Below, one piece after another: positions 34,934-52,304 of a stretch of 64,000 nucleotides of DNA (positions are counted from its first letter, which is position 1; every line of letters begins with the position of its first letter). The translations under genes and the position numbers were made by a program. The notes under the pieces are model-generated. The model ran no database searches. It saw only the letters and a program-made list of their open reading frames with translations, and was not told the origin of the DNA. Origin of the DNA: Candidatus Saccharimonadia bacterium (GTDB lineage: Bacteria; Patescibacteriota; Saccharimonadia; Saccharimonadales; JALRHH01); contig JALRHH010000002.1 of NCBI GenBank assembly GCA_023253175.1, positions 199-64,198 of the forward strand, written 5' to 3'.

Positions 34934-37123
34934 CTACGCTTGAGCTGGCTCGTCGACCTTGAGTTTATCTTTTGCGAAGCTAAATCCAAAGGTACTTCCC
35001 TTGCCGACTTTACTTTCGAATATTAGTGCGCCCCCCTGGGCGACAATAACTTTCTTGGCCATAAAGAGTCCAAGACCCGTTCCATCCGGACGAGCCTTCT
35101 GCGCATTCTTAGCCCGGAAGAACTTGTTGAACAGATTATGCTGCTCTGACTCTGGGACACCAATACCGTTGTCTTTGACCCTGAACTCTACTGATTTGTC
35201 ATTTTCCGTCAAAGAAATATCAATCTTGCCGCCTGCTGGCGTGTAGTAGATCGCATTATCAACAAAGTTCATAATCACCTGCCGGATCTTGGTCTCATCT
35301 AACATAAGCGTAGGGAAGCTATCCGGCTGATTATATGTCAATGTCATATTCTTACCAGCCGCAGTCTCCCGGAGTTGCTGCACCTCACCCGCAATCACAT
35401 CTGACAAGTTAGTAGGCAGTGCGTCGATCACAAATTTACCTGTCTTGAGGCGAGAAAGGTTCAAAAGATCAGCAATCAAAAACACCATTCGTTGGCTACT
35501 GATAAACGACTGTTCCAGCAGTTTCTTTTGCATATCGGTTATCGGACCAGCATCGCCTTCTAGTACCATCGATACATAACCTTTGACAGAGGTGAGCGGG
35601 GTACGTAGCTGGTGAGAAGCCATACTAATAAACTCATCCTTTGTCTCATCCATGGCCTTCAACTTATCATTGGCTTTCTTTAATCGCTTCGTCGCATCAT
35701 TTACTTTTTGCTGCAATGTAACGTTAAAGTTCTCGATCTCTTCGAACCTTAGGCCATTCTGGACTGCGATTACCAATTCACCTGAAATTATCTTAATTAC
35801 GTCGACGTCCTGCTTATTGTAAGGATTCCCTGACTTCTTGTATCCAAGAGCAAGGTAGCCGACGCCTTCTGTATCAATTCCATAATCAGTAACGAGCCTT
35901 GAAATTAATGCAATATCATACTTACGCATCAGCTTCCTAAGGGCGCTCTGCTCCTCTAAATCTTCAGCAACTAGAATTTTTTGACTTGAGTCTGCAATAG
36001 TATCTGCAACAATCATTAAGTCCTCAATGCTCAGCTGTCGGCTATCAACACCGAGCATACGAGGGCTGGAATACTCTGTACTCCTAAGGTAGAACAATAC
36101 TGATGTAGATTTAATATAACTATTGATAATTCCGGCACTGTCTCTAAGTAGCTTTTCTACGTCCACATTAGCGACTACAGCCTTGTTTATGTCGTTAAGA
36201 AACGTCTGCGCATCGTACGCATCACGATAAAACAACTTATCAGAAACCCTATTAAACGTACGCTTTACGGGACCGTAAGATACGGCCGCGAATATCACAA
36301 GTATGACATTCGTAAGCGTACGCCAGTTCTCGTTGCCGGATCCGTTAAACAGATACTTTGAGGCCTCAAATGATATAAGGGCATATATGGTTAAAATAAG
36401 ACCAAGCGTAAACACATAGGCCAATGATCGAACCACGACCAACCTGAGATCAAATAACCTGTGTTTAAACACGGCGTAGTACATTCCGCCGACAAAAGCC
36501 GCCATTGGCACAATACCTATATTGGTAAGCCCAAACCAGCCCGTTGCCACAGGAAGTATGAAAAGCATTAAAACCAGCAGAGGCAGAGAGTAGGCAAAAC
36601 TGCGGTAGATAGTCTTTAGTCTTGTTTTTTGGGCGCCCTTACTGCGTTTAATATTCTTCTTTAAGACCACAAATATTGCAGCAATCATTGACACTAAAAA
36701 TACAAAATACACAGGCAAACCGGCCCCAAATTCAACTGCATAGACATTGTCCTGGAGATGGACTCCCGCAGGCACAAGTGCGGTAAACGACATTAAGCCT
36801 ACCAGAAAAATAGGCACATAGAGTGCCTTGAATATTTTTCTGGCCCTTTCGTCCTGAACCAGGCTAATGGTGAAGTGAAGCAGGTTAACTGCAGTAAAAT
36901 AACTAAAGAAGAAGACAAAATAATTAGCCTTGAGCGCTGTCTCGGGAGAGCGGCCTATGTCATTGCTTATATAGTTAGCAATGATCCACACAGCAACAGA
37001 TGCAGCCAAAGCAGCGAAAGTAATGCTTGTAACTGACTTTGCCTTCTGTACCAAAACGGCTGCCGAAAGTACGATCAATGCGACAATAATTATAAGATCA
37101 ATTATTAGGTATACATCCAGCAT
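34934..37123 (-). CDS. sensor histidine kinase with a polytopic N-terminal membrane domain
   Basis: About 7-8 predicted TM helices in the first ~300 aa, then a cytoplasmic linker/sensor region. H-box MASHQLRTPLTSV; ATPase boxes VDNAIYYTP, DNGIGVP and GTGLGLFMAK. Confidence 0.9.
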   Translation of the reverse strand: MLDVYLIIDLIIIVALIVLSAAVLVQKAKSVTSITFAALAASVAVWIIANYISNDIGRSPETALKANYFVFFFSYFTAVNLLHFTISLVQDERARKIFKALYVPIFLVGLMSFTALVPAGVHLQDNVYAVEFGAGLPVYFVFLVSMIAAIFVVLKKNIKRSKGAQKTRLKTIYRSFAYSLPLLVLMLFILPVATGWFGLTNIGIVPMAAFVGGMYYAVFKHRLFDLRLVVVRSLAYVFTLGLILTIYALISFEASKYLFNGSGNENWRTLTNVILVIFAAVSYGPVKRTFNRVSDKLFYRDAYDAQTFLNDINKAVVANVDVEKLLRDSAGIINSYIKSTSVLFYLRSTEYSSPRMLGVDSRQLSIEDLMIVADTIADSSQKILVAEDLEEQSALRKLMRKYDIALISRLVTDYGIDTEGVGYLALGYKKSGNPYNKQDVDVIKIISGELVIAVQNGLRFEEIENFNVTLQQKVNDATKRLKKANDKLKAMDETKDEFISMASHQLRTPLTSVKGYVSMVLEGDAGPITDMQKKLLEQSFISSQRMVFLIADLLNLSRLKTGKFVIDALPTNLSDVIAGEVQQLRETAAGKNMTLTYNQPDSFPTLMLDETKIRQVIMNFVDNAIYYTPAGGKIDISLTENDKSVEFRVKDNGIGVPESEQHNLFNKFFRAKNAQKARPDGTGLGLFMAKKVIVAQGGALIFESKVGKGSTFGFSFAKDKLKVDEPAQA

Positions 37124-37174: not shown

Positions 37175-38104
37175 TTACACGCCCTTCCGACGATCTCTGT
37201 CGGCCTTTGTGAAGCTGGCGCTGGAATTAATACCAAGCTTTTCTCGAATCATCATAGTGCCAAGTCGACGATAAAATGCGGTGCGAGGCATCCTAATAAC
37301 TCCACTCTCAAGGGTCATCGAGTCCATAAAGCCAAAGCGTGGAGCCCAAATTGGATCTTTGCGATGATTCTTCACGTCCTTAGTCATGTGCAAAAATGCC
37401 TGAGACGAACCTAAGGCAGAGGCAACATCAACACCCTGAGATATTGATGGAAGTGGCGCATCCTCATCATTGGCAACCGCCTCTAAGGTGCGCATATCAG
37501 CATATGAAGGCAGACTTGGTAAGCACCGGCTTATGTCCAGCTTAAGATCCTTAACCTCATCAATTGGCATATCCTTCGGGATTCCCATCATAGTCCTGAA
37601 AGAATGTCGTCCCTCTGGATGAAAAGAAGTAATCTGCGCAGCAAACCCGACGTTCATAATGAAAACATCAGGAATACTACGACGGCGTGCTTCATCGGAA
37701 ACCATTGTTCCAAGATCAAGGTGCGTTAACTCGGTCTCGTCAAAAACGAGCGTAGAACGGCTCATGAACTCCTGGACGTTATCTTCGGTGATACCATCGG
37801 TATAGACACGAACTTTTGCCTCAGGGTTGATCTCATGGACCATATCACGAAATACTTCGGCCTTATTTTGTCCAAGAGTTTTATTAGTTGCACCAGGAAC
37901 ACGGTTAATGTTTTCTGCCTCAAAAACCTCTGGGTCAGCGATATCAAATGACTGGACGCCCATTCGTGCAAGCTTTTGACCAAGCTGGAAACCATCGCCA
38001 CCAACACCTGCAATAGCTACGGATGCATTCATAATAGCTTGTTGTTCCGCCTCATTCCAAAAACCATAGTTACGGGCAAATTCGGGACTATTAACAGAAT
38101 TCAT
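37175..38104 (-). CDS. ThiF/MoeB/E1-like adenylyltransferase family protein
   Basis: Rossmann motif VAIAGVGGDGFQLGQKLARMG followed by DIADPEVFEAENINR (compare the D.D..E.SNLNRQ block of the ThiF family). 309 aa. Confidence 0.7.
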   Translation of the reverse strand: MNSVNSPEFARNYGFWNEAEQQAIMNASVAIAGVGGDGFQLGQKLARMGVQSFDIADPEVFEAENINRVPGATNKTLGQNKAEVFRDMVHEINPEAKVRVYTDGITEDNVQEFMSRSTLVFDETELTHLDLGTMVSDEARRRSIPDVFIMNVGFAAQITSFHPEGRHSFRTMMGIPKDMPIDEVKDLKLDISRCLPSLPSYADMRTLEAVANDEDAPLPSISQGVDVASALGSSQAFLHMTKDVKNHRKDPIWAPRFGFMDSMTLESGVIRMPRTAFYRRLGTMMIREKLGINSSASFTKADRDRRKGV

Positions 38105-38133: not shown

Positions 38134-38922
38134 TTACGCGGCAGTCCTATTAATGTCGGTATTTAGGCTAAAGTGTTCTATATTCTGTTCTGTTGCACGA
38201 ATCCGGTTAACTGCTTGATCACTATCAAAACCAAGACCCTTAGCCATAGCAGGCACATCTACTGAGATACCAAGATTGTCAGCTGCATACTCTGGCACAA
38301 ACTTAGGATCAGCAATGCGCTCTAGCGGCACACCAAGACCACTCTTCAAGTAACGCTCGACAGTCGGCTCAACAACACCAAATGTCGGAACAAGGCCATG
38401 AGCAGTAATATGAGCTACTACTTTCTTGAATAATGGAGCGCTCATCTGCGCCTGAACCCTTGGGTTTTCATGGCGTGCAATGTACCGAGAGACCTCTGTT
38501 GAACCTATAGGAAGTGGGTTATCAGTAAATTTTTCTGGGAAAAATTCTTCAATAGGAAGTGGTCGTGGATCCATCGCGCGCTTCTCGATAGTACGAATAC
38601 TACCAACAACCCTCGCAAGACCCTCGCCTTCCTTTGACCTCTCAAGAAGAGCCCAGTGAGTAGAGCGAACATCGTCATTATCAACCTCAGTACCATCCTC
38701 ACGCACATCTGAATGAGGAATCATCTGAGTCTGGTATGCATACACGTTCGCACGAAGCTTAAGGTATCCGTCATGTTCTTGTTCGCGGCCAGGCAAAATC
38801 TGGTCACCAACAGCGATCATACCAACAGCAAAGTTTGTCTCTGGGCGCTGGTTAATAAACCAGGTACTTTCTACCGTTGGGATAACCATCTCGTTCGAAA
38901 TTGTGAGGTCGATCTTTGACAT
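38134..38922 (-). CDS. LuxI/FeeM-like GNAT-fold N-acyltransferase (autoinducer-synthase-like)
   Basis: By-eye alignment to LasI/LuxI blocks: YLKLRANVY (cf. KLRAQVF), an acidic cluster EDGTEVDNDD, VVGSIRTI (cf. GCWRIL), STEVSRYIA (cf. WELSRFAI), and FGVVEPTVERYLKSGLGV (cf. TVTTVGVEKMMIRAGLDV). Confidence 0.55.
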   Translation of the reverse strand: MSKIDLTISNEMVIPTVESTWFINQRPETNFAVGMIAVGDQILPGREQEHDGYLKLRANVYAYQTQMIPHSDVREDGTEVDNDDVRSTHWALLERSKEGEGLARVVGSIRTIEKRAMDPRPLPIEEFFPEKFTDNPLPIGSTEVSRYIARHENPRVQAQMSAPLFKKVVAHITAHGLVPTFGVVEPTVERYLKSGLGVPLERIADPKFVPEYAADNLGISVDVPAMAKGLGFDSDQAVNRIRATEQNIEHFSLNTDINRTAA

Positions 38923-39270: not shown

Positions 39271-39792
39271 ATGAAAACGAAGAATCTTCTTGGCGATAGT
39301 AAAAGCAAAACTTTTGGTAACAAAACCAATGAGGCGACCAGCAGGCAAACGGTAGTGGCGGTCATATTCGACCCTTCATCAGATACATATCTTTGTCAAT
39401 ACTGGGAAGAATACAGTGGACTTACGTGTCTATTATCGGGAGGTATAGAAGATGATGAAGACAGCTATGAGGCTCTAAGAAGAGAAATTCGTGAAGAAAC
39501 TGGCTACATCGACTTCGATATTATAGGCATCCTTGGAGGCACCCTAAACACTTATTACGTGAAAGGCTCGACAGGAGAAAGCCTTGTCAAACACATAACC
39601 CCCTACCTTGTTCGGTTAAACTCATCTCGACAAATAGAAACTACTAAAGAAGAAGATGAAAGATTTGAGAACCTTTTCCTAGACCACAAGAATATTAATG
39701 AATTGATGACAAAATATGAAAAAAATAGCGGATCGACTCTTGCTGATCATAAAGAAATTTTATCAAGGGCGGTTAGGTATTTAAACCAATAA
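39271..39792 (+). CDS. NUDIX hydrolase
   Basis: Nudix box GGIEDDEDSYEALRREIREETG. Confidence 0.8.
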   Translation: MKTKNLLGDSKSKTFGNKTNEATSRQTVVAVIFDPSSDTYLCQYWEEYSGLTCLLSGGIEDDEDSYEALRREIREETGYIDFDIIGILGGTLNTYYVKGSTGESLVKHITPYLVRLNSSRQIETTKEEDERFENLFLDHKNINELMTKYEKNSGSTLADHKEILSRAVRYLNQ

Positions 39793-39847
39793 TTGACATA
39801 TATTGATTTGTGTTTTATAGTTTTCCTAATTTAACATAGGTTGAGCC

Positions 39848-42808
39848 GTGGAAAAGCCAGTACTAGATCAAGCAATAGATATGCCTCCAGCAAATATTAT
39901 CATTCTTGGCTTGCCGGGTTCAGGCAAGACTACCCTTGGCGAGCTAATGGCAGAAGGCAATGGCGAAATGGAGTACATTTCAGTTGGCCAAATCTCACGC
40001 GAGCTACCTGATGACGATGAGCGCCGTCATTATGTAGATAATCTCTATAAGGAACACAATCGTCCGGTAGGAAGTCCGGATTTTTTTGTTGAACTCGTCA
40101 GACCAGCAATCAAAAAAGCGCATAGTGAGAATAAAGGCATAATCTTAGATGGCATTCCAAAAAAACCAGAAGAAATAGAACCACTTAATCGACTCCTCGA
40201 AGAAGAGGGCATCAAAATTGATGGCATCGTAATTTGTGAAGTTTCACCGTTTACAGCCCTACAGCGGGTTATAGACAGAGGGCCCCGTGAAGGAGGGCTT
40301 GATACCGTAGACACGGCCATAAACCGAGGCGCAGCTTACTGGGAGGCTATTGAGGGATTTCGGGGCAGACTCGGTGGGTTTCTTGGGCTTAAAATTGTGA
40401 ATGTTGATACGGAGCATTTAGACCCACAAACGGCAGTACATAAAGCGAATGAGATTTTGGAATCGATACGCCTTAAAGAGGCATCTGCCAATGTAATAGA
40501 TATAAAAACAAAAGAAGTAACGCTAGAAAAAGCTGAAATTGATCAAGTTCTGCAGTCAATCGAGAAACGTAACGACAAAGAGACTATGTTGTTGCTTTCT
40601 AGGCTATTTGTAGATACAAAATATGTACCCTTAATCGAGAAAATCCTTGATTCTAACCCGGACATAACACCATCTGACGTAAGTCATGAATTAGTTGCAG
40701 CAATGCCGGAGTTTAAATATCTACCCCTATCTGCAGGACGTTATGCTGATATGCTGATCAGAAATGTCTATGAACCCCTAAGAAACCTAGCTAATACCAT
40801 ACCCAAAGAAGCCAGGCTGCGAGCTAGTGGCAGACTGGATTCAGAAGTGTTAGGCGTCGTCATCAGAGAGGCTCTTGTTACCAAGGAGATTATTCGATGC
40901 TATCAAGGAAAAGCTAATAAAGTAAAAAGCTCTGAAGAGTTTGTAAATGAGGAATTCGAGATAAGAAAAGCAGACCTCGAGTACACAGAGTCTTTCCTTA
41001 GAAAAGCCAATGCACTACCAGACGGTATGACATTAAGAACACTCATGATGATACAACCACGATATTGGAACATCTTCACCTCCAGTGCATTACTTGGGTC
41101 AGTTGACGGCAACTATCAAAAGCATATCAATAGCCTTCCTGGCTCTCATCACTCACTATCAGTGCCTGTTGATATGCCGAGGCGAATGATAGCCAACTCC
41201 ATGGGAGAGTATCAACCATTCATTGAAGCCGTATCAACAAGCGAGAGAAGCGGCTTTGACACAAGCCTAGGATTCCTACACGTGATAGGTATGGACGAGA
41301 ATGGCAAAGCGTTTCAAGTTGAATGGCCTTTGTTGATGCAGGATTCGAGACTGGCGATGCATCCAAATGCATTATTAAGAGACATGCTCGCGCGAGGACA
41401 TGGGATATATTTTAATCATGATTTCTGGCATAACATTGTACCCGTATATGCTGAAAGCTTTAACTTATATCATCCTCACGCGCCTATTGCATATGGTGGA
41501 CTAATGCCAGAATATTTAGATTTCGGTAAAAGTCTACGATCGGAGAAAGAGGAATACGAGATTTTTGTTGCCATGACGCACGCACAGGCACAGCGATACA
41601 GAATGGAGCACGACCCTGAATACAAAAGATCACAAATAGAAGCAGCGTTGACAATCATTAATGATATACCCCACTTGAAGCAACAGCTTATTCAAAGTGA
41701 CGGCGAGAAATTTGCAGAAGATGTTTCAAAGTATTTCATGACCGTTACCATCGGCAGATTGTTGAATATCATCCCGCCTGATTCAAACGATCTTCTTCCC
41801 ATTGTAGATAAGCTTGAGAAAGACCCTTACCTTTCTCAAGACATATCAAAGTCAGACTTCTTAAAGCTTCTCTTTACTCAACGAATGGCCCTTGCAACAA
41901 AAGATAGTAGGCTAAGTTTTATGCAGGATATTCTGTCCGAGAGCAGCATAGATGAAGCCATAAAAGAAAGAATCATCGAAAGTCTTCTGCCCACAATCAA
42001 TAATATTGAACGTAAGCCAGCTCTTTCTCATGAGCTTATTGAGGAGCTCTGCCAACACAAAGCCATCGTCTCTATCGCGCTACAGTACATTGAACCCGCT
42101 AATCCCCATGCAGAATCAGGTTCAGTCGCACTATACAAATCCCTGGAAGATATGGGTCTCAAAGCACTTCTAGACAATGACACTCAACACATTAACCTAC
42201 GAGGCCTTTCGCTACTACGATGGCTAGCAATAGTCGCGCCACAAAGAGATCCCTTAAAAGGTCATATGGAAAAAGTACACGGCAAGAACGGGATTATTTT
42301 TGGAAACGAAATAGTTCCGCCTACAGAAGTTATCAGACGACACACTGAAACAATAATTCAAAATCAAGACGTATATGAATACAGAAAATGGGCCCGAGAA
42401 TTTGGTCAGAGTTTGGCGGCTAGTATCTACGATCTACTCCTGCACGACGGTCAAGCCAATAACAAAGACCAACGTACCGCCTTGTACATTCTCTCCAACT
42501 ACAATGGAGTAGACCCCGCTCAGCGACAGATCATAAACAATGGCATTAGAAAGCTAGATTTAATGTTAGAGGACTTAGTAAATGCAAAATACTCTCTTGA
42601 TATTTCTGATCTTGAAGAAATATCTGAACTCGCTGATGTGTGTAATGAGTATAGCCCCGAGCTCAGTGAGACAATCGCAGACAACCTAAAGCGCTACTCA
42701 TTCCTACAGCAGCAAGAAGTTGCCTATCAGACATTCGCAAGCACAAACTATGCTACGTCAAAAGCCGCCATAGAGAATTCAACCATGGATCTACTAGATA
42801 ATACATAA
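39848..42808 (+). CDS. 986-aa protein: N-terminal adenylate-kinase-like P-loop NMP kinase domain fused to a ~780-aa domain of unknown function
   Basis: IIILGLPGSGKTTLGELMA (P-loop), ISVGQISR, GIILDGIPKKPEEIEPL and RVIDRGPREGG parallel the adenylate kinase blocks GxPGxGKGT / ISTGDxLR / ILDGFPRT / R..R.DD. The remainder is largely helical with His-rich patches (FNHDFWHN, YHPHAP). GTG start at 39848; an alternative ATG lies at 39881. Confidence 0.6.
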   Translation: MEKPVLDQAIDMPPANIIILGLPGSGKTTLGELMAEGNGEMEYISVGQISRELPDDDERRHYVDNLYKEHNRPVGSPDFFVELVRPAIKKAHSENKGIILDGIPKKPEEIEPLNRLLEEEGIKIDGIVICEVSPFTALQRVIDRGPREGGLDTVDTAINRGAAYWEAIEGFRGRLGGFLGLKIVNVDTEHLDPQTAVHKANEILESIRLKEASANVIDIKTKEVTLEKAEIDQVLQSIEKRNDKETMLLLSRLFVDTKYVPLIEKILDSNPDITPSDVSHELVAAMPEFKYLPLSAGRYADMLIRNVYEPLRNLANTIPKEARLRASGRLDSEVLGVVIREALVTKEIIRCYQGKANKVKSSEEFVNEEFEIRKADLEYTESFLRKANALPDGMTLRTLMMIQPRYWNIFTSSALLGSVDGNYQKHINSLPGSHHSLSVPVDMPRRMIANSMGEYQPFIEAVSTSERSGFDTSLGFLHVIGMDENGKAFQVEWPLLMQDSRLAMHPNALLRDMLARGHGIYFNHDFWHNIVPVYAESFNLYHPHAPIAYGGLMPEYLDFGKSLRSEKEEYEIFVAMTHAQAQRYRMEHDPEYKRSQIEAALTIINDIPHLKQQLIQSDGEKFAEDVSKYFMTVTIGRLLNIIPPDSNDLLPIVDKLEKDPYLSQDISKSDFLKLLFTQRMALATKDSRLSFMQDILSESSIDEAIKERIIESLLPTINNIERKPALSHELIEELCQHKAIVSIALQYIEPANPHAESGSVALYKSLEDMGLKALLDNDTQHINLRGLSLLRWLAIVAPQRDPLKGHMEKVHGKNGIIFGNEIVPPTEVIRRHTETIIQNQDVYEYRKWAREFGQSLAASIYDLLLHDGQANNKDQRTALYILSNYNGVDPAQRQIINNGIRKLDLMLEDLVNAKYSLDISDLEEISELADVCNEYSPELSETIADNLKRYSFLQQQEVAYQTFASTNYATSKAAIENSTMDLLDNT

Positions 42809-42894: not shown

Positions 42895-43287
42895 ATGCTA
42901 AAGATTGCGGTCATAGAAGACGACAAGCCGATCCAGATGCTCTACAAGACAAAGTTAGAGGTTGATGGTTTTGCCGTGGTGACAGCAGACAATGGCAAGC
43001 AAGGGCTAGAACGGCTCGAAGCTGAACTGCCTGATTTGGCCCTAGTTGACCTGCGCATGCCAGAAATGGGCGGAGATGAAATGCTGTCTCGCCTGCGTGA
43101 AACAGAGTGGGGGGCGAGCATTCGCGTGATCATTCTGACCAATATTAGCCGTGACGAAGCGCCCAGTGCGCTTCGTTTCTTAAATGTAGACCGCTACCTC
43201 GTCAAGGCGCATCACACCCCAAAACAGGTTGTTGACGTCGTAAATGAAGTACTGAACATTAAAAAGCATTCTAATCAAGGACGCTGA
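42895..43287 (+). CDS. single-domain (CheY-like) response regulator 1
   Basis: Receiver residues are intact: EDD, phospho-acceptor D in LALVDLRMP, T in ILTN, K in LVKA. No output domain. Confidence 0.85.
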   Translation: MLKIAVIEDDKPIQMLYKTKLEVDGFAVVTADNGKQGLERLEAELPDLALVDLRMPEMGGDEMLSRLRETEWGASIRVIILTNISRDEAPSALRFLNVDRYLVKAHHTPKQVVDVVNEVLNIKKHSNQGR

Positions 43288-43331
43288 CGAAGTTGCTTGC
43301 CGAAAGTCAGTAATTCACTTACGATAAGACT

Positions 43332-43700
43332 ATGCCTAAAATTGCAATTATCGAAGACGACCAAGCTATTAGCCAGATGTACCGCATGAAGTTCGAAGCC
43401 GAGGGCTTTGAGGTTGAAACTGCGGCTAATGGAAAGCTCGGACTTGAACTCGCCGATAAAATGCGACCAGATATTATCCTTTTGGACCTTATGATGCCAG
43501 AAATGACCGGTGATGAGATGTTAGTTAAGCTCCGTGAAGCCGACTGGGGCAAGAACATCCGCGTGATTATCCTGACAAATATGGGCGAACAAGAAGCCCC
43601 ACCAGTCATCAAAACACTTGGCGTAAAGCGCTTCATCATCAAAGCAGAGATGACCCCGCGGCAAGTTGCCGAAATGGTAAAGAACGAGCTTGCAGCGTAG
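43332..43700 (+). CDS. single-domain (CheY-like) response regulator 2
   Basis: Paralogue of RR1 with EDD, ILLDLMMP, ILTN and IIKA. Confidence 0.85.
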   Translation: MPKIAIIEDDQAISQMYRMKFEAEGFEVETAANGKLGLELADKMRPDIILLDLMMPEMTGDEMLVKLREADWGKNIRVIILTNMGEQEAPPVIKTLGVKRFIIKAEMTPRQVAEMVKNELAA

Positions 43701-43703
43701 CCT

Positions 43704-44084
43704 ATGGCGCATATTGTTTTAGTCGAAGACGACGCACTGCTGTCGGAGATGTATCAAGCCGCACTCATCAGCGAAGGCTTTCAGTGCTCTGTTGCGCTTG
43801 ACGGTACAACCGGCCTTGACCTGATCACCCACACCCAGCCAGACTTGGTTCTACTGGATCTGATGCTTCCACAAATGAGTGGCGACGAGGTACTTGCGAA
43901 AATGCGACAGCTAGATCGCACCAAGCATACTCGTGTCATAATTATGACCAATATCAGCGAAAGCGAAGCCCCTGAACAGCTTAAACACCTTCAGTTTGAG
44001 CGTTACATCGTAAAAGCCAACACGTCACTACTCGAAGTTATCGAAATTATTAAAAAAATGTTCGTATCCCAACCTGTTAAGTAG
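43704..44084 (+). CDS. single-domain (CheY-like) response regulator 3
   Basis: Paralogue of RR1/RR2 with EDD, VLLDLMLP, IMTN and IVKA. Starts 3 nt after the RR2 stop. Confidence 0.85.
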   Translation: MAHIVLVEDDALLSEMYQAALISEGFQCSVALDGTTGLDLITHTQPDLVLLDLMLPQMSGDEVLAKMRQLDRTKHTRVIIMTNISESEAPEQLKHLQFERYIVKANTSLLEVIEIIKKMFVSQPVK

Positions 44085-46944: not shown

Positions 46945-47021
46945 GGGCCTGTAGCTCAGTTGGTTAGAGCAGCGGACTCTTAATCCGCGTGTCGTGGGTT
47001 CGAATCCCACCAGGCCCTCCA
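46945..47021 (+). tRNA. tRNA-Lys (anticodon CUU), CCA encoded; integration target of the island
   Basis: GGGCCTGTAGCTCAGTTGGTTAGAGCAGCGGACTCTTAATCCGCGTGTCGTGGGTTCGAATCCCACCAGGCCCTCCA. Anticodon loop is CTCTTAA. Confidence 0.9.
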
Positions 47022-48602
47022 AATATCCAGTTTTGAATCTGAATACCAATCTATATCTGTAGATTGGTATTTTTGTTTAGTTCGTCCCTTTACAGCCAAG
47101 GGCTTAAGCCATTCATTAGGTTCGATAGTTAATTTGCCATTCATTAGGGTTATAGATTTGCTGAATGATGTAATAATTTTTCTCTTATCTAGGATCGTCC
47201 CACTACTGAATTTTGAAGCCGCAGTAAAGGCTAATTCTATGGTGTCTTCCGCAATTTTAAGCCAATCAGTTGTCCGCTTATTGCAATCAATCAACTCTTC
47301 GTCTAATTTACGAAGGTTTTGCTTAAAAATGCCGGACCTTGTGGTATATTCAGAGTCGTTTATAAGCTTTAATGCGCGCATTTCGATAAGGCCATTCAAC
47401 TTATCCATCTCGACCTCTTTCCTGTCCATCACATTCTGCCTAAATGCCTTATTAAATTTACTCTCAGCAGCATGCTTACTGCGCAAAATAGAAAGTGCGA
47501 TGTCTTTAAACTCAGGTACAATTTGATATTGCGATATTATCTCCCTGATCTGATTTTCGATTGACTCGAGACGTGTATATTTCTTTTGGGTACAAACTTT
47601 CGACTGGCTCTTCCTGGTACAGTGATAATGCACATAAGTTTTATACTCATTCAACGACTTAATATATTTAGTATTAGACTTTCCCACTACGCTACAGCCA
47701 CACTCCCCACATCTAATCAAACCCGTAAAAGAGTAGGCGTGGGTATTTGATCTAGGCTTTCCTCTATCTTTAAGAATACGTTGAGCAAGATCAAACTGCT
47801 CTAGCGATATCATAGCCTTGTGATTTCCTTTGTAGAGTTCACCATTGTGCGATATATAACCTGCGTAGAACGGATTAGTAAATATGTTATAGATCATGCT
47901 CGTGGGCATTTTCTTGCCACCAGCACGCTTTGTTCTTCGTGTTCTAAAACCCCATTCTTCATTCGCAATACGACATATTTGGCCAGGAGTATAAATTCCA
48001 CTAAACAACATATCCCACATTTTTAAGATTAAGTCGTAAGGCTTTTGGTCAATCTCAGTAGACGTAATAATTTTGTCTTTATTGGTCTGCAGCCTACCGA
48101 ATTGATCAAGTAAGGGAACTTTCATATATCCCTGCGGAACCTGACCGGGACGCTCACCGTTTGACGCTTTCTGTTCCATACCCCGCTTAACATCGCGGCC
48201 TTGTTTTGCGGACTCGTACTGTGATTGGTTCATCGTCATTTGAAGCATCATTATGCCCTCGGCACTATTGTCAAAACCGAATGTACAGAATTTTAAATCT
48301 TTTAACGTTGATCTGAGCCTGTATGTTATGGCAGCTGAATCTATTTCATTACGAGATAGTCTATTTGGATGCCAACATACTATTCCATCTGCAAATCCTT
48401 CATCTATTAGATCGAGCATTTCATTAAAAATGCTCCGACCAGGCTTAAAAGCAGTTTTACTTTCAGGTTCCATCCACTTCACTATCTCAATATTCGGATA
48501 GTATTCCTTGATTTTACTTATCTGTGACTGAAGTGAAAGCTCCTGCCGCTCTGCCCGCTCTTCAGACTTTCTAACATATGCGATGTATCTTAGGTTTGTC
48601 AT
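46980..48602 (-). CDS. large serine recombinase (integrase)
   Basis: N-terminal resolvase-type catalytic region IAYVRKSEERAERQELSLQSQ, a recombinase domain, a zinc ribbon CGECG...HYHC and a long coiled-coil C-terminus. The last ~13 codons are encoded by the reverse complement of the tRNA-Lys T-arm (…WRAWWDSNPRHAD). Confidence 0.85.
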   Translation of the reverse strand: MTNLRYIAYVRKSEERAERQELSLQSQISKIKEYYPNIEIVKWMEPESKTAFKPGRSIFNEMLDLIDEGFADGIVCWHPNRLSRNEIDSAAITYRLRSTLKDLKFCTFGFDNSAEGIMMLQMTMNQSQYESAKQGRDVKRGMEQKASNGERPGQVPQGYMKVPLLDQFGRLQTNKDKIITSTEIDQKPYDLILKMWDMLFSGIYTPGQICRIANEEWGFRTRRTKRAGGKKMPTSMIYNIFTNPFYAGYISHNGELYKGNHKAMISLEQFDLAQRILKDRGKPRSNTHAYSFTGLIRCGECGCSVVGKSNTKYIKSLNEYKTYVHYHCTRKSQSKVCTQKKYTRLESIENQIREIISQYQIVPEFKDIALSILRSKHAAESKFNKAFRQNVMDRKEVEMDKLNGLIEMRALKLINDSEYTTRSGIFKQNLRKLDEELIDCNKRTTDWLKIAEDTIELAFTAASKFSSGTILDKRKIITSFSKSITLMNGKLTIEPNEWLKPLAVKGRTKQKYQSTDIDWYSDSKLDIWRAWWDSNPRHAD

Positions 48603-48745
48603 TTAAACTCCACTTAAAAGGACGGCCCTGGTTCACCCAATAAGATAGAAATCTACTGGCAAGGCCGCCCTTAAAAGGCAGTATGTATGATTCTCTATCT
48701 ATATGGGTGAACTCGTTAATTATACGCTATTTATATATTCTTAAG

Positions 48746-49261
48746 TTAGTTCTGAACGTCATTGCCGAACAGTAACTCTGCTTCGGATACTTGCCTCTTC
48801 TGATGTCGTTGTATTAAACCTAATTTAGATTGGTAAGGTTTCTTGGTATTCTTTGTAATAGATTTCCTATGCTCCTCAATCTTTATATCTACCTCCCTTA
48901 GAGCAAGATGGTTGCTTTTCATTAAACTGGTTATGATTAATGTAAGCTTACTGATTTCCACCCTATAATGGTGTTTTGCTGGAATTGAAGCCAGTTTATG
49001 GCTAACAACCCCATAGTTAATCAATATATTTAAGGCAGTCCTCTGATTATTTCTGGAAAGCCCCGTCTCTATAAACATTTCATCTGCAGTCTTATAGAAA
49101 TATCCATCTTTTCTACTGGTTTTATCTTGCCAGTAGAGCAGCTGGTTGAACATAATCGCAGCATCTCGAGATTTAAAACATATTGCAAGCGCGCCTGAGT
49201 ATGCTATTGGCCTTTGCTTAATTAAGCTATATACAACTTGCTGATGTTTGCTCAGACTCAC
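48746..49261 (-). CDS. island-encoded putative winged-helix DNA-binding/replication-organiser-like protein
   Basis: The block YFYKTADEMFIETGLSRNNQRTALNILINYGVV resembles DnaD/phage replication-organiser N-terminal wHTH proteins. Start taken at the GTG at 49261, preceded by AAGGAG; the track ORF starts at 49303. Confidence 0.45.
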   Translation of the reverse strand: MSLSKHQQVVYSLIKQRPIAYSGALAICFKSRDAAIMFNQLLYWQDKTSRKDGYFYKTADEMFIETGLSRNNQRTALNILINYGVVSHKLASIPAKHHYRVEISKLTLIITSLMKSNHLALREVDIKIEEHRKSITKNTKKPYQSKLGLIQRHQKRQVSEAELLFGNDVQN

Positions 49262-49266
49262 TCCAG

Positions 49267-49413
49267 TCACTCCTTTGGTGTTATTGATTCTATAAACATA
49301 CAAAGCTCTGCTATCTTCATTCGCGCCTCCTCATTACTAATATCCATAGAGTAGAGGTCTTTAAAAGTCCTTCTAAATATCTTTATATGTTCAGTAGTAA
49401 TGTCTGCGTTCAT
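49267..49413 (-). CDS. small island ORF (48 aa), possible excisionase/regulator
   Basis: Below the track cutoff. Reads MNADITTEHIKIFRRTFKDLYSMDISNEEARMKIAELCMFIESITPKE. Its stop sits 3 nt before the proposed GTG start of the downstream gene. Confidence 0.3.
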   Translation of the reverse strand: MNADITTEHIKIFRRTFKDLYSMDISNEEARMKIAELCMFIESITPKE

Positions 49414-49427
49414 ATCTTAAGTAATCT

Positions 49428-49471
49428 AAAAGCCCTCATTCTTATGACTGGTATAGAACGAGGGCTTTTTT
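49428..49471. terminator. hairpin flanked by A/T runs separating island cargo genes from the recombination module
   Basis: aaaagccctc-(22 nt)-gagggctttttt. Could act as a terminator in either direction. Confidence 0.4.
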
Positions 49472-49700
49472 CTTCCAGTCATATTTTCAGTATATGCATC
49501 CATTCCCAAAAAGCGTGTTGTGAAAGTGCGCAGCAGCATATTAGCCTCGGCCCAGACTGTATTGTTGTATAATCCTGGTAAGTGGATTTCCACTGAGACC
49601 TAAAGCCACTCCTAAAAAAGAAGGTATGGTCACCAAATCTATAGCGAAAAAAATCCCGTCGTTTGGGTACTTTTCGCTATAGTCATAGTCCGAAAGGAAT

Positions 49701-49964
49701 ATGGGCGGCCGAAAGGTCGTCGCCCAGCGGCGGGTTTTTTGTATGCCGAAAATCCAGGAGAGCAAAATTAATATGCCCAACTTAGTTAAAGATAAATCTA
49801 GTTACCTACCCGTACTGCTTGTAGCCACTATAGTCATACTAGTAGGTATTGTGCTGTACGCTTTATACGGACCATCAGAGGCTGACAAACTGCCTAATAC
49901 ACCAGATATTCACCAGCAGATGCTAGACGAAACTGTTCGCCAAAACGAATTAAACTCTAACTGA
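49701..49964 (+). CDS. possible small membrane protein
   Basis: Contains TM helix YLPVLLVATIVILVGIVLYALY. The likely start is an internal Met at 49743 or 49773. It is the only plus-strand ORF in the island. ORF-only evidence. Confidence 0.3.
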   Translation: MGGRKVVAQRRVFCMPKIQESKINMPNLVKDKSSYLPVLLVATIVILVGIVLYALYGPSEADKLPNTPDIHQQMLDETVRQNELNSN

Positions 49965-49989
49965 AGCTTACGTAGGCAGACGGTACGAA

Positions 49990-50559
49990 CTATGAGCTAC
50001 TCTGATCGGGTAGCCCAATACGAGATAGGAAGTTTGCAAAGCGTTGTGATAAAGCTTCACGATAAATCTCATTAATAGATGTAACGTAGCTCCTCTTGCG
50101 AGCATCGTACAAAACCTCTCTCGGTGCTGTTATGAAGTGTTTAAAATCAAGCACCAATTCAGGGACCCCATTATCAAGGTCCTCTTGTAAATAATGGTAT
50201 CTCTTGTAAGTATCATTAGCTCTAATTTTAGCCATCAACTTTTCGCCGAATACTTCCATTTGACGCGTTGCGATATGTTCCCCCCTTGAGAAATCATCAA
50301 GCTGGTACGCTGGACAAACAAGTATAGTATCAATATTTTTGTCTGTTTTAACTGGTTTAGGCTTCTTGTTTCTTTCTTCATAATCTTGCTGCAAGTCACA
50401 ATCTTGAGTCAGTACAACCGCGTATTTTAAATTAGCCTCTATATGTAATGTATTACTCCCACTTCCAATAGAGATTAAAAGATCCTCAAAGATGTCCCCT
50501 TGGCATATTCGGGCCTTTCTGTAGTATCTATACGGACTTTTTATTAGACTTGTGTACAT
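49990..50559 (-). CDS. island cargo protein D (189 aa, unknown function)
   Basis: No recognised family. The N-terminal pattern QGDIFEDL...(~20 aa)...YAVVLTQDCDL is loosely reminiscent of the GD(I/L)(W/F)...RPxVV(L/I)S pattern of MazF/PemK-fold proteins; this similarity is weak. Confidence 0.5.
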   Translation of the reverse strand: MYTSLIKSPYRYYRKARICQGDIFEDLLISIGSGSNTLHIEANLKYAVVLTQDCDLQQDYEERNKKPKPVKTDKNIDTILVCPAYQLDDFSRGEHIATRQMEVFGEKLMAKIRANDTYKRYHYLQEDLDNGVPELVLDFKHFITAPREVLYDARKRSYVTSINEIYREALSQRFANFLSRIGLPDQSSS

Positions 50560-50737
50560 ACCTGGTGTGGTTATAAGAAGTATTGGTTCTAGAATAAACT
50601 ACAGCTTTGTCACTGGGTTGTGTCGAAGAGGTCCTAGCAGAAACAGACTGTTTTGCTGGCTTTTTTCGGGTATCCTCCGATGGCTTAGTATATCTGCCTG
50701 ATTCAGCCATCCTGTAATGAATATAGTCTTCGCTCAT
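50528..50737 (-). CDS. island cargo protein E (69 aa, basic, Ser/Thr-rich)
   Basis: Starts 2 nt after the stop of the upstream gene and overlaps the downstream gene by 32 nt, suggesting translational coupling. Confidence 0.4.
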   Translation of the reverse strand: MSEDYIHYRMAESGRYTKPSEDTRKKPAKQSVSARTSSTQPSDKAVVYSRTNTSYNHTRYVHKSNKKSV

Positions 50738-50739
50738 TT

Positions 50740-51489
50740 TTATTTTTCCATTTCTTTTCTAACTTTATCGGTAATTGATAATTCGAATATACTTTCTGCC
50801 TCATCCTTTAAATCAGTAAATGACTTTAAGATTGCATCTAAATCTGTGTCTACTGGCCGAGGGGTATAACAGTCAATGTCTAAAATATAAGATGATCTCA
50901 AGATAGGACTAGGGTACTTATCATTCCAAATACCGTATTTAAATATCGCGCTACAGCTATCTGTCTTATATTCGAACTGATTTAATATCCTGAGCGGAAC
51001 CCTATCTTTTGAACCAATAAATTCATGAACGACAAGTAAGTCGCTAGATATGTAGGCCTTCCAGTCCTGCAACTTTCGGACAGAATCAAATTCAAGATTA
51101 TTTATATACCTTAGGCCCATACGAATTAGTTGCTTTACACTGTGATCGTTCAAAAATTTTATACACATTTTAGATATGTAATCTTTAATGGCACTTGAAT
51201 CTTTATATGAAAAATATTCTAGAACAAGATAAGATGGTCCTATTTCTAATCTGTTTCCATTTGTAGTATTAAGGAAGTGCCAAACATCAATTTCTTCTAC
51301 GGAATTAATAACCTCTCCTGAATCAACCTGAAACTCAAAATTCCCAACTTTGCCTTTTTTCTTAGAGATATCATCAAATAAGTCGCCAGCTAGTTGTCTG
51401 TACTCTTCAAAATTAGTAAGCTCCGTAGATTCAAAATCTAGTCGAAAAATCACTTGCTTCAGATAATTTTTCTTATATGTATGGCTCAT
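50740..51489 (-). CDS. island cargo protein F (249 aa), possibly TIGR04255-like
   Basis: The N-terminus MSHTYKKNYLKQVIFRLDFES resembles, from memory, the conserved N-terminal strand of the sporadically distributed TIGR04255 family. No catalytic motif recognised. Confidence 0.5.
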   Translation of the reverse strand: MSHTYKKNYLKQVIFRLDFESTELTNFEEYRQLAGDLFDDISKKKGKVGNFEFQVDSGEVINSVEEIDVWHFLNTTNGNRLEIGPSYLVLEYFSYKDSSAIKDYISKMCIKFLNDHSVKQLIRMGLRYINNLEFDSVRKLQDWKAYISSDLLVVHEFIGSKDRVPLRILNQFEYKTDSCSAIFKYGIWNDKYPSPILRSSYILDIDCYTPRPVDTDLDAILKSFTDLKDEAESIFELSITDKVRKEMEK

Positions 51490-51542
51490 ATCGTCTAAGA
51501 TTAATATAACACGATTGCTAGTCGCCGTCTTAATTAAGGTCC

Positions 51543-52304
51543 CTATTCCTTAATTTGAACTCTTTTCTTAAGCTCCAAAGTATCATTCATTTCCATAATA
51601 TAAAAGCCATCTTCAAACTGCCTACTTACTGTGTTGAAATCTTTTAGTATATATCTTTCACCGTAATTTTTGATTAATAAACGAGATGAATCATTTTGGG
51701 CTGAAATCACATATAGACCGTTCTGAGAGCTGGCAAAATACTTTCCAGTACCTAATGCAATAGCAAATACTAGAGTTAGTAAATAAATATAGTAAGCATT
51801 TCGTTCAGCCAACGTTTTATATGGTTTATTGAGATCTTCTTCCCTGCTTTTCTGGGCTTTTTCTAGTGCCTTATCCAAGTTACGGTAACGTATAAGATTA
51901 AAAATAAAATCTATTTCAAAGGTAAGCAGAAGTAGACAAATGATACCCGCCATTGTCAGCCAGTTATGTCCGCCCATACCATAGTAAACGAGTGCAGAAA
52001 TTACGGAAGCTATGGCCATACCTACCACTCTTCTCATCTCACGCTTAATTGATTCCCGTTTTATACCATCCGTCATTTCAATCATCGCTACTTTAATATG
52101 ATCAATCATAAAAAATCCATAGCTTAATAATGCGATGCTGACTATGAGAGTGATTACGTTTACCTCTATAAATTTGTAACTTACATTGAAATGATTTAAA
52201 TAAGCATATTCAAAAATGTAAGCAACCGCATAACTGGTTGCCGTAATCAACAGGACTTGTATACCACTATTTTCTAAAAATCCTTCTTTATTATTTTTTG
52301 GCAT
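51543..52304 (-). CDS. island cargo protein G (253 aa, polytopic membrane protein with a small C-terminal soluble domain)
   Basis: About 5 hydrophobic helices (e.g. VLLITATSYAVAYIF, VITLIVSIALLSYGFFMI, GMAIASVISALVYYG, MAGIICLLLLTFEIDFIF, YYIYLLTLVFAIALG), then ~70 soluble residues. Confidence 0.55.
   Translation of the reverse strand: MPKNNKEGFLENSGIQVLLITATSYAVAYIFEYAYLNHFNVSYKFIEVNVITLIVSIALLSYGFFMIDHIKVAMIEMTDGIKRESIKREMRRVVGMAIASVISALVYYGMGGHNWLTMAGIICLLLLTFEIDFIFNLIRYRNLDKALEKAQKSREEDLNKPYKTLAERNAYYIYLLTLVFAIALGTGKYFASSQNGLYVISAQNDSSRLLIKNYGERYILKDFNTVSRQFEDGFYIMEMNDTLELKKRVQIKE

Follow-up and report, generated by a model that had tools for sequence, protein, structure and literature searches.

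An adenylate-kinase-like domain joined to a large undescribed domain in a rare protein family of candidate-phyla bacteria, with a possible role in nucleotide salvage or sanitation

The forward strand of a 64,000-nucleotide stretch of DNA from a Candidatus Saccharimonadia bacterium (assembly GCA_023253175.1, contig JALRHH010000002.1; hereafter the window) carries a complete open reading frame at 39848..42808, stop codon included, that starts with GTG and encodes a protein of 986 amino acids. The protein joins an adenylate-kinase-like N-terminal domain (N-domain) to a C-terminal region of approximately 770 residues (C-domain), and belongs to a tiny episymbiotic bacterium with a genome of ~1 Mb. 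The gene is real and under strong purifying selection. Assemblies from NCBI, ENA and Logan contain an identical protein (P0001/P0043, 100% twins) on four or more contigs, both in the 986-residue form, on a 950-kb contig, and in a 975-residue form starting at Met12. GTG is likewise the start codon of the closest homologue, L013 (83% identity), which has Leu at the Met12 position, so that the 986-residue call is the better of the two. The frame is intact in independent assemblies, neither split nor frameshifted, and homologues span 948–991 residues. Comparison of the gene with three homologues gave proportions of nonsynonymous differences (pN) of ~0.10–0.35 against saturated synonymous differences (pS) of ~0.74–0.89. 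With L013, pN is ~0.10 and pS ~0.8, similar for both domains; with L008, pN is ~0.15–0.17 and differs little between the two; with L003, the C-domain has diverged more (pN 0.35 versus 0.24 for the N-domain). The motifs listed for this protein in an earlier note, which was made from the DNA letters, are all present, and re-translation confirmed the coordinates of HDFWH, HPHAPIAYGG, EKEEYE and RWLAIVAPQRDPLKGHMEKVHGK.

The N-domain (residues 16–212; 39893..40483, + strand) is a short-LID kinase domain of the nucleoside monophosphate (NMP) type. The NMP-kinase blocks that had been read in the first ~200 residues are borne out by Pfam ADK (PF00406), which matches residues 16–167 with 38.5 bits (gathering score 26.8), by adenylate kinases recovered from PDB sequences at E~1e-9 to 1e-10, and by a Foldseek search with the full-length AlphaFold model, in which the domain resembles AK1, UMP-CMP kinase and Mycobacterium tuberculosis Adk with target-normalised template modelling (TM) scores of 0.77–0.85. 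Identity to solved kinases is ~20–26%. The P-loop GLPGSGKTT (residues 21–29; 39908..39934, +) conforms to GxPGxGK[GST]T, aligning to GLPGAGKGT of Bacillus subtilis Adk and to the M. tuberculosis enzyme; it is found in all members that carry the fusion, with varying residues. R51 of ISVGQISR, which fits S-x-G-x-x-x-R, is equivalent to the NMP-site Arg36 and is nearly invariant among fused members. The LDG motif is kept, and the LID residues R140, R147, D152 and R160 are invariant in fused members, R144 nearly so; their counterparts in alignments are ERLKGRGRAD..NR of M. tuberculosis Adk and the catalytic residues of solved kinases. In adenylate kinases the Arg and Asp residues of the LID bind the phosphates of ATP.

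The acceptor site is altered. Arg88 (in DGFPR) and Gln92 of the B. subtilis and Escherichia coli enzymes recognise the AMP phosphate and adenine. Alignment to B. subtilis Adk places Lys105 and Glu109 at these positions (DGIPKK-PEE), and in P0005/P0006 the Arg88 position is occupied by Val, after which the following Lys is conserved. All 20 NCBIfam adenylate-kinase models score below their cut-offs (best 49.4 bits versus 168, TIGR01351), and the domain is also under the NCBIfam UMP-CMP-kinase cut-offs. With Lys and Glu at two NMP-site positions, the N-domain is therefore not an ordinary Adk. We infer from these residues that it would be an active phosphotransferase whose acceptor is probably other than AMP.

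The remaining ~770 residues constitute a previously undescribed domain. Residues ~216–986 have no match in Pfam, NCBIfam, PHROGs or PADLOC, in which whole-protein scans returned only P-loop and ADK matches. PDB sequences, searched with the single sequence and with a profile, gave no C-domain match other than spurious coiled-coil or interferon ones, and Pfam searches at E<=10 over 30 members revealed no family common to their C-domains, even a weak one. An AlphaFold model of the C-domain, built on a 30-sequence alignment, is confident (mean predicted local distance difference test score (pLDDT) 91.9, predicted TM score 0.89). Foldseek found nothing at E<=1e-3 for this model among 350,542 PDB chains (best E 0.7, query-normalised TM 0.06) and no significant match in BFVD; for the full-length model, adenylate kinases were the sole matches. 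We found no description of the family in the literature. Thus the large uncharacterised domain that had been proposed for residues 200–986 withstands family, PDB-sequence, structure-prediction and Foldseek searches, and matches no well-known family in any of them.

According to the model, the region opens with a sub-domain of long helical hairpins (residues 228–386; 40529..41005, +; block pLDDT ~87–95), which is also found in stand-alone homologues, whose profile matches begin at position ~20–80. It is followed by a conserved core (residues 396–600; 41033..41647, +), which holds most of the residues invariant in the family alignment and in which three long antiparallel strands (458–467, 470–482 and 488–497) are flanked by short helices, and then by a large helical C-terminal part. 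The earlier description of the region as mostly helical is accurate for the domain overall and fails for the beta-sheet core at residues ~409–497.

Conservation within the C-domain was assessed on 27–30 sequences that, outside the window clade, are 17–34% identical to the window protein. E492, P494, H524, D525, H528, F538, Y556, F559, R564, Y570 and E571 are invariant, and N422, Y423, L437, E460, G475, F476, G486, M497, V533, Y534, H542, A545, P546 and G551 nearly so. The invariant H-D-x-x-H motif (H524, D525, H528; 41417..41431, +) is a candidate metal or catalytic site, and its surroundings read [NT]-H-D-[LFIM]-x-H-[NH] across the family. Downstream, re-translation and alignment place the HPHAPIAYGG patch (H542, A545, P546, G551), which runs through R564 to EKEEYE (Y570, E571), at 41471..41560 (+). 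The conserved-looking His/Trp patches of the earlier note hold up in part: down to ~18% identity the first is a family signature, with H524, D525 and H528 unchanged, and the second is partly conserved, with H542, A545 and P546 nearly fixed, whereas W527 and H544 vary. The HHSL string is not conserved beyond the closer clades. A conserved basic motif, RW..I.APQR..LKGHMEKVHGK, lies in the C-terminal helical sub-domain (residues 791–813; 42218..42286, +; family alignment and re-translation) and is a possible phosphate-binding patch. The invariant E492, H524-D525-x-x-H528, R564 and Y570-E571, which persist at 17–22% overall identity, together with the nearly invariant H542 point to a possible active site that depends on metal. 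By eye we also compared the motifs with a kinase-like catalytic loop (HGDLWxxN versus NHDLWHN), membrane-desaturase His boxes, nucleotidyltransferase carboxylates and the cyclic-nucleotide phosphodiesterase (PDE) signature; all were rejected, as the spacing or other motif residues did not fit and Foldseek matched none of these common folds.

The family is rare. An exhaustive hidden Markov model search of 1.84 billion cluster representatives recovered 35 proteins (29 at E<1e-30), a word-indexed set of 5.8 billion proteins contained 10 clusters, and a profile-seeded search of the 5.8-billion database added no members to the exhaustive search. All members are apparently from Saccharibacteria and other candidate-phyla (CPR) bacteria. 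A scan of genome representatives, made with peptide patterns taken from the window's own clade, gave two matches in Saccharibacteria-type metagenome-assembled genomes, one of them labelled Candidatus Saccharibacteria; phage, plasmid and viral-contig (IMG/VR) collections held no relatives. The stand-alone homologue L015/P0026 and P0042 come from organisms that read UGA as Gly (code 25; Gracilibacteria/Absconditabacteria), because 'WW' in the database sequences becomes the conserved 'GG' on retranslation. The stored proteins for P0026 and P0042 (L015 1387–4767) are accordingly mistranslated, with YWW where the family has YGG.

The earlier note had asked whether the kinase is always fused, which it is not: it is carried by 12 of the 30 aligned members. 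Fused forms occur in three clades of an average-linkage clustering (8, 9, 5), namely the window clade, the P0009–P0017 clade and P0023. At L014 the protein is split, with a 242-residue kinase gene lying 72 bp upstream of a 732-residue stand-alone C-domain in a different reading frame; this kinase is 40% identical to the window N-domain (E 7e-47), and the split state is seen on a single Logan contig, where an indel artefact is possible. At the loci of the stand-alone homologues L010, L015 and L016 such a kinase is absent altogether, and the C-domain therefore has a function of its own. The kinase is a dedicated but dispensable partner paralogue of the C-domain.

Gene neighbourhoods were compared across 15 distinct loci. 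Directly upstream of the window gene and on the same strand lies a NUDIX hydrolase of 173 residues (39271..39792, +; Pfam NUDIX 3e-11) with an intact GX5EX7REUXEEXGU box, and the same arrangement, with NUDIX orthologues 56–61% identical to that of the window, is found in L013 and L006/L008. A consensus scan, which is not evidence of function, places a promoter-like site (TTGACA-17-TATAGT, 11/12; 39793..39821, +) in the 55-bp gap that separates the NUDIX stop codon from the GTG start; with a near-consensus site of its own, the gene would not require co-transcription with NUDIX. In the code-25 locus L015 the order is flipped: the NUDIX orthologue (45%, E 2e-41) is directly downstream of the ~22%-identical stand-alone homologue and is followed by UMPH-1, a pyrimidine 5'-nucleotidase. 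Six further loci (L009, L011/12, L014, L018, L019 and L020) carry an orthologous Maf nucleoside triphosphate (NTP) pyrophosphatase upstream in divergent orientation; L018 adds an HD_3 (YfbR-like HD) nucleotidase, a NUDIX gene and an AAA_33 kinase, all within 4 kb, and L020 a NUDIX gene at 1.2 kb. NUDIX and Maf are non-homologous families that both hydrolyse NTP to NMP, and one or the other adjoins the family gene in 10 of the 15 loci. These 10 loci come from some three to four lineages that are independent of one another, namely the window clade, the code-25 lineage and two Maf-linked clades that may share ancestry. Elsewhere, L016/17 has a YfbR-like HD 5'-nucleotidase, an HAD hydrolase and EamA, L010 has purB-purA-guaB upstream and thymidine kinase nearby, L001 has pyrD/E/F with purB/purC, and L003 and L004 have no comparable adjoining gene.

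The suggestion that the NUDIX hydrolase acts in the same pathway thus gains support from its adjacency in three Saccharibacteria loci and in the distant L015, with Maf in its place elsewhere. The same suggestion for three receiver proteins does not survive the comparison. These tandem CheY-like single-domain receivers (130, 122 and 126 residues; window 42895–44084, +) lie downstream of the gene in the window and in L013 but at no other locus, and we reject a receiver or two-component link in favour of local synteny. A multi-transmembrane HisKA histidine kinase ~3 kb upstream (34934–37123, −) likewise recurs only in L013.

Several further observations concern the loci rather than the gene. At L021 8001–10090, in a Saccharibacteria genome, an orthologue of the window NUDIX (57% identical) occurs without the large gene and adjoins a Ham1/RdgB ITPase and a second NUDIX gene in a house-cleaning cluster; a 724-residue unannotated protein nearby is not a family member, and a type-IV-secretion-like cluster (TraC-like, PrgI, P-loop_TraG) lies upstream. 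A UPF0176/rhodanese (TrhO-like) gene is found within ~3 kb of the family gene in L011 (5552–6409) and L015 (5080–6288), two very distant loci whose copies share 33% identity; this may be coincidence or old synteny. At L001 (8970–14232), P0009 and a 221-residue unknown reading frame are flanked by a full EamA gene on one side and on the other by an EamA fragment of 104 residues that is 93% identical to it, a layout resembling an insertion that has duplicated its target; the contig also has adenylosuccinate synthetase in four pieces and a DDE transposase. Upstream in the window are a ThiF/E1-like adenylyltransferase (37175–38104, −; PRK08223-type, 146 bits, below cut-off) and a GNAT/exosortase-type N-acyltransferase-like gene (38134–38922, −; weak, TIGR03694 E 5e-5). 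A fused version of this pair may exist, as PRK14852 (NCBIfam, 989 residues) has a ThiF region at 315–489; the pair is not kept beside the 986-residue gene in L013. Downstream, a tRNA-Lys(ctt) (46945–47021, +) is overlapped by the end of a 540-residue serine-recombinase frame (46980–48602, −), and guanine-plus-cytosine content falls to 0.36–0.40 at 48–52 kb, probably marking a mobile element integrated at tRNA-Lys (46945–52000).

Based on the fusion and fission of the kinase, the pyrophosphatase, 5'-nucleotidase and pur/pyr neighbours and the invariant His/Asp/Glu/Arg set, we tentatively propose that the protein is an enzyme of two modules that serves to salvage or sanitise the nucleotide pool and is restricted to CPR bacteria, a reading that we favour while rating it somewhat short of probable. 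The N-terminal module would be a catalytically competent NMP-kinase-type phosphotransferase with a canonical ATP site and an altered acceptor site, and its substrate would probably not be AMP. The C-domain may hold a metal-dependent active site in its beta-sheet/helix core (E492, H524-D525-x-x-H528, H542, R564, Y570-E571) and have a phosphorylated nucleoside as its substrate; it would most likely be a phosphoesterase or phosphotransferase that makes or consumes the NMP-like substrate of the kinase, and the NUDIX or Maf partner could turn non-canonical NTPs into NMPs. We have far less confidence in particular chemistries, for instance a nuclease or nanoRNase that supplies the kinase with NMPs, or an enzyme for modified NMPs. 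Less likely than not, though conceivable, is that the C-domain is a new fold housing a metal-dependent enzyme, one for a step in salvaging or sanitising nucleotides that is so far unassigned in these genome-reduced episymbionts; for example, NMPs released or repaired from scavenged or modified nucleic acids might be passed straight to the dedicated NMP kinase, while NUDIX or Maf would clear non-canonical triphosphates.

Several points weigh against a salvage or sanitation enzyme. The rarity of the family argues against an essential salvage step, and no homology or fold match indicates the chemistry of the C-domain. The active site is a prediction from sequence conservation, and the change of Arg88 to Lys could mean that kinase activity is reduced or different. 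Adjacency to Maf is divergent rather than operonic and may be inherited synteny, the two Maf-linked clades being possibly sisters, and five of the 15 loci (L001, L003, L004, L010 and L016) have no adjoining NUDIX or Maf.

We considered four other explanations, given here from the likeliest to the least likely. The C-terminal region may be non-catalytic, serving as a scaffold or sensor through which the kinase is regulated or localised, or binding another partner when it stands alone; its conserved residues would then bind a ligand without catalysis. The largely helical region with its long hairpins and the lack of an enzymatic fold among the Foldseek results would suit such a role, which we nevertheless consider improbable: H-D-x-x-H, E, R and Y-E are invariant at <20% identity, as is typical of active sites, the kinase-less stand-alone forms (L010, L015, L016) keep the same residues, and 770 residues under strong purifying selection are a high cost in a ~1-Mb genome. 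A scaffold is one of the two alternatives offered by the earlier note, the other being a nucleotide-dependent enzyme. Somewhat more improbable still is a conflict-system protein, i.e. an anti-phage defence protein or inter-bacterial effector that depletes or modifies nucleotides. Such a role could account for the extreme sparseness of the family (10 clusters per 5.8 billion proteins and 35 per 1.84 billion representatives), the large size and multidomain make-up of the protein, which includes a P-loop module, the insertion-like position of the L001 gene between duplicated EamA fragments and the probable integrated element ~4 kb downstream in the window. It is at odds with the PADLOC results, which are confined to a weak P-loop match to VakA (E 0.002, residues 17–53) and a sub-threshold SP_VI match (E 0.056), with the lack of relatives in the phage, plasmid and IMG/VR collections, and with surroundings made up of housekeeping genes (Maf, murD, murI, folD, ribosomal proteins, pur/pyr) rather than defence islands. 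The Maf pairing is moreover stable over homologues only ~40–60% identical to one another, and inspection of the sequence by eye, with no predictor used, showed no signal peptide or secretion-associated domain.

The other two explanations we regard as very unlikely. One is that the core is a highly diverged zincin-like metalloprotease or other protein- or peptide-directed metalloenzyme in a coincidental nucleotide context. A beta-sheet, a short helix with H524-D525-x-x-H528 and E571 on a helix 43 residues further on resemble the gluzincin arrangement, which we take as a lead only. In this family an invariant Asp stands in for the catalytic Glu of HExxH, comparison by hhalign with an M48 peptidase derived from the loci gave a probability of 0.1%, Pfam and NCBIfam returned no peptidase family, and Foldseek found none of the many zincins in the PDB; the kinase fusion and the NUDIX/Maf/nucleotidase context would also be left unexplained. 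The other, which we think the least likely of all, is that the protein amounts to no more than the adenylate kinase of the organism, extended at its C-terminus. The Pfam ADK match and the Joint Genome Institute names for P0009 and P0012 speak for it, homologues being labelled 'adenylate kinase' or 'adenylate kinase family enzyme' by two sources. Against this, 49 bits compare with 168 for TIGR01351, placing the domain under every NCBIfam adenylate-kinase cut-off, Lys and Glu occupy the Arg88 and Gln92 positions, the kinase paralogue is found only fused to or adjoining the C-domain, and most C-domain carriers belong to a tiny subset of CPR bacteria, whereas adk is universal. The 64-kb window contains no canonical adk.

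To our knowledge, Saccharibacteria and other CPR bacteria lack de novo nucleotide synthesis and live off their hosts. The family is a concrete candidate for a new nucleotide-metabolising enzyme, possibly with a new fold, because a confidently modelled domain of 770 residues without detectable relatives coincides with an invariant constellation of residues, kinase fusion and fission, and house-cleaning and 5'-nucleotidase neighbours. Labels such as 'adenylate kinase family enzyme' hide most of such proteins, and the rarity of the family limits its general impact.

Among known systems, HD phosphohydrolases and class I cyclic-nucleotide PDEs resemble the C-domain in having H-D-[LFIM]-x-H in a partly helical region and a nucleotide context. 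HD[LIVMFY]xH is the class I cyclic-nucleotide PDE signature (PROSITE PS00126), which requires [AG] where the family has Ile or Leu. The H..HD..D pattern of HD enzymes has an upstream H and a downstream D that are not invariant in the family, and the HD fold is all-alpha, whereas the family core has a beta-sheet. No HD-family Pfam match was found in 30 members at E<=10, Pfam gave no PDEase match either, and Foldseek matched neither PDE nor HD structures, of which the PDB has hundreds. The enzymes of the house-cleaning network (NUDIX, Maf, Ham1/RdgB ITPase, YfbR-type HD 5'-nucleotidase and UMPH-1/cN-III) are recurrent neighbours in the same proposed process, but the C-domain is not homologous to them: it has no Pfam or Foldseek match, and hhalign of the family against a YfbR-like protein derived from the loci gave a probability of 0.2%.

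With the short-LID NMP kinases of PF00406 (AK1, M. tuberculosis Adk and UMP-CMP kinase), the window protein shares the fold, the P-loop, the Arg36 equivalent, LDG and the LID Arg/Asp residues; it differs in its Lys/Glu NMP site, low identity and fused 770-residue domain. In architecture it may be likened to 6-phosphofructo-2-kinase/fructose-2,6-bisphosphatase and NadR, in which a P-loop kinase of the adenylate-kinase fold class is combined with a second catalytic module acting on the same phosphorylated metabolite, but the C-domain is unrelated in sequence or structure to the His-phosphatase, NMNAT and NUDIX folds. A NUDIX partner was recruited by fusion in NadM-Nudix, whereas the NUDIX hydrolase of the window is encoded by a neighbouring gene.

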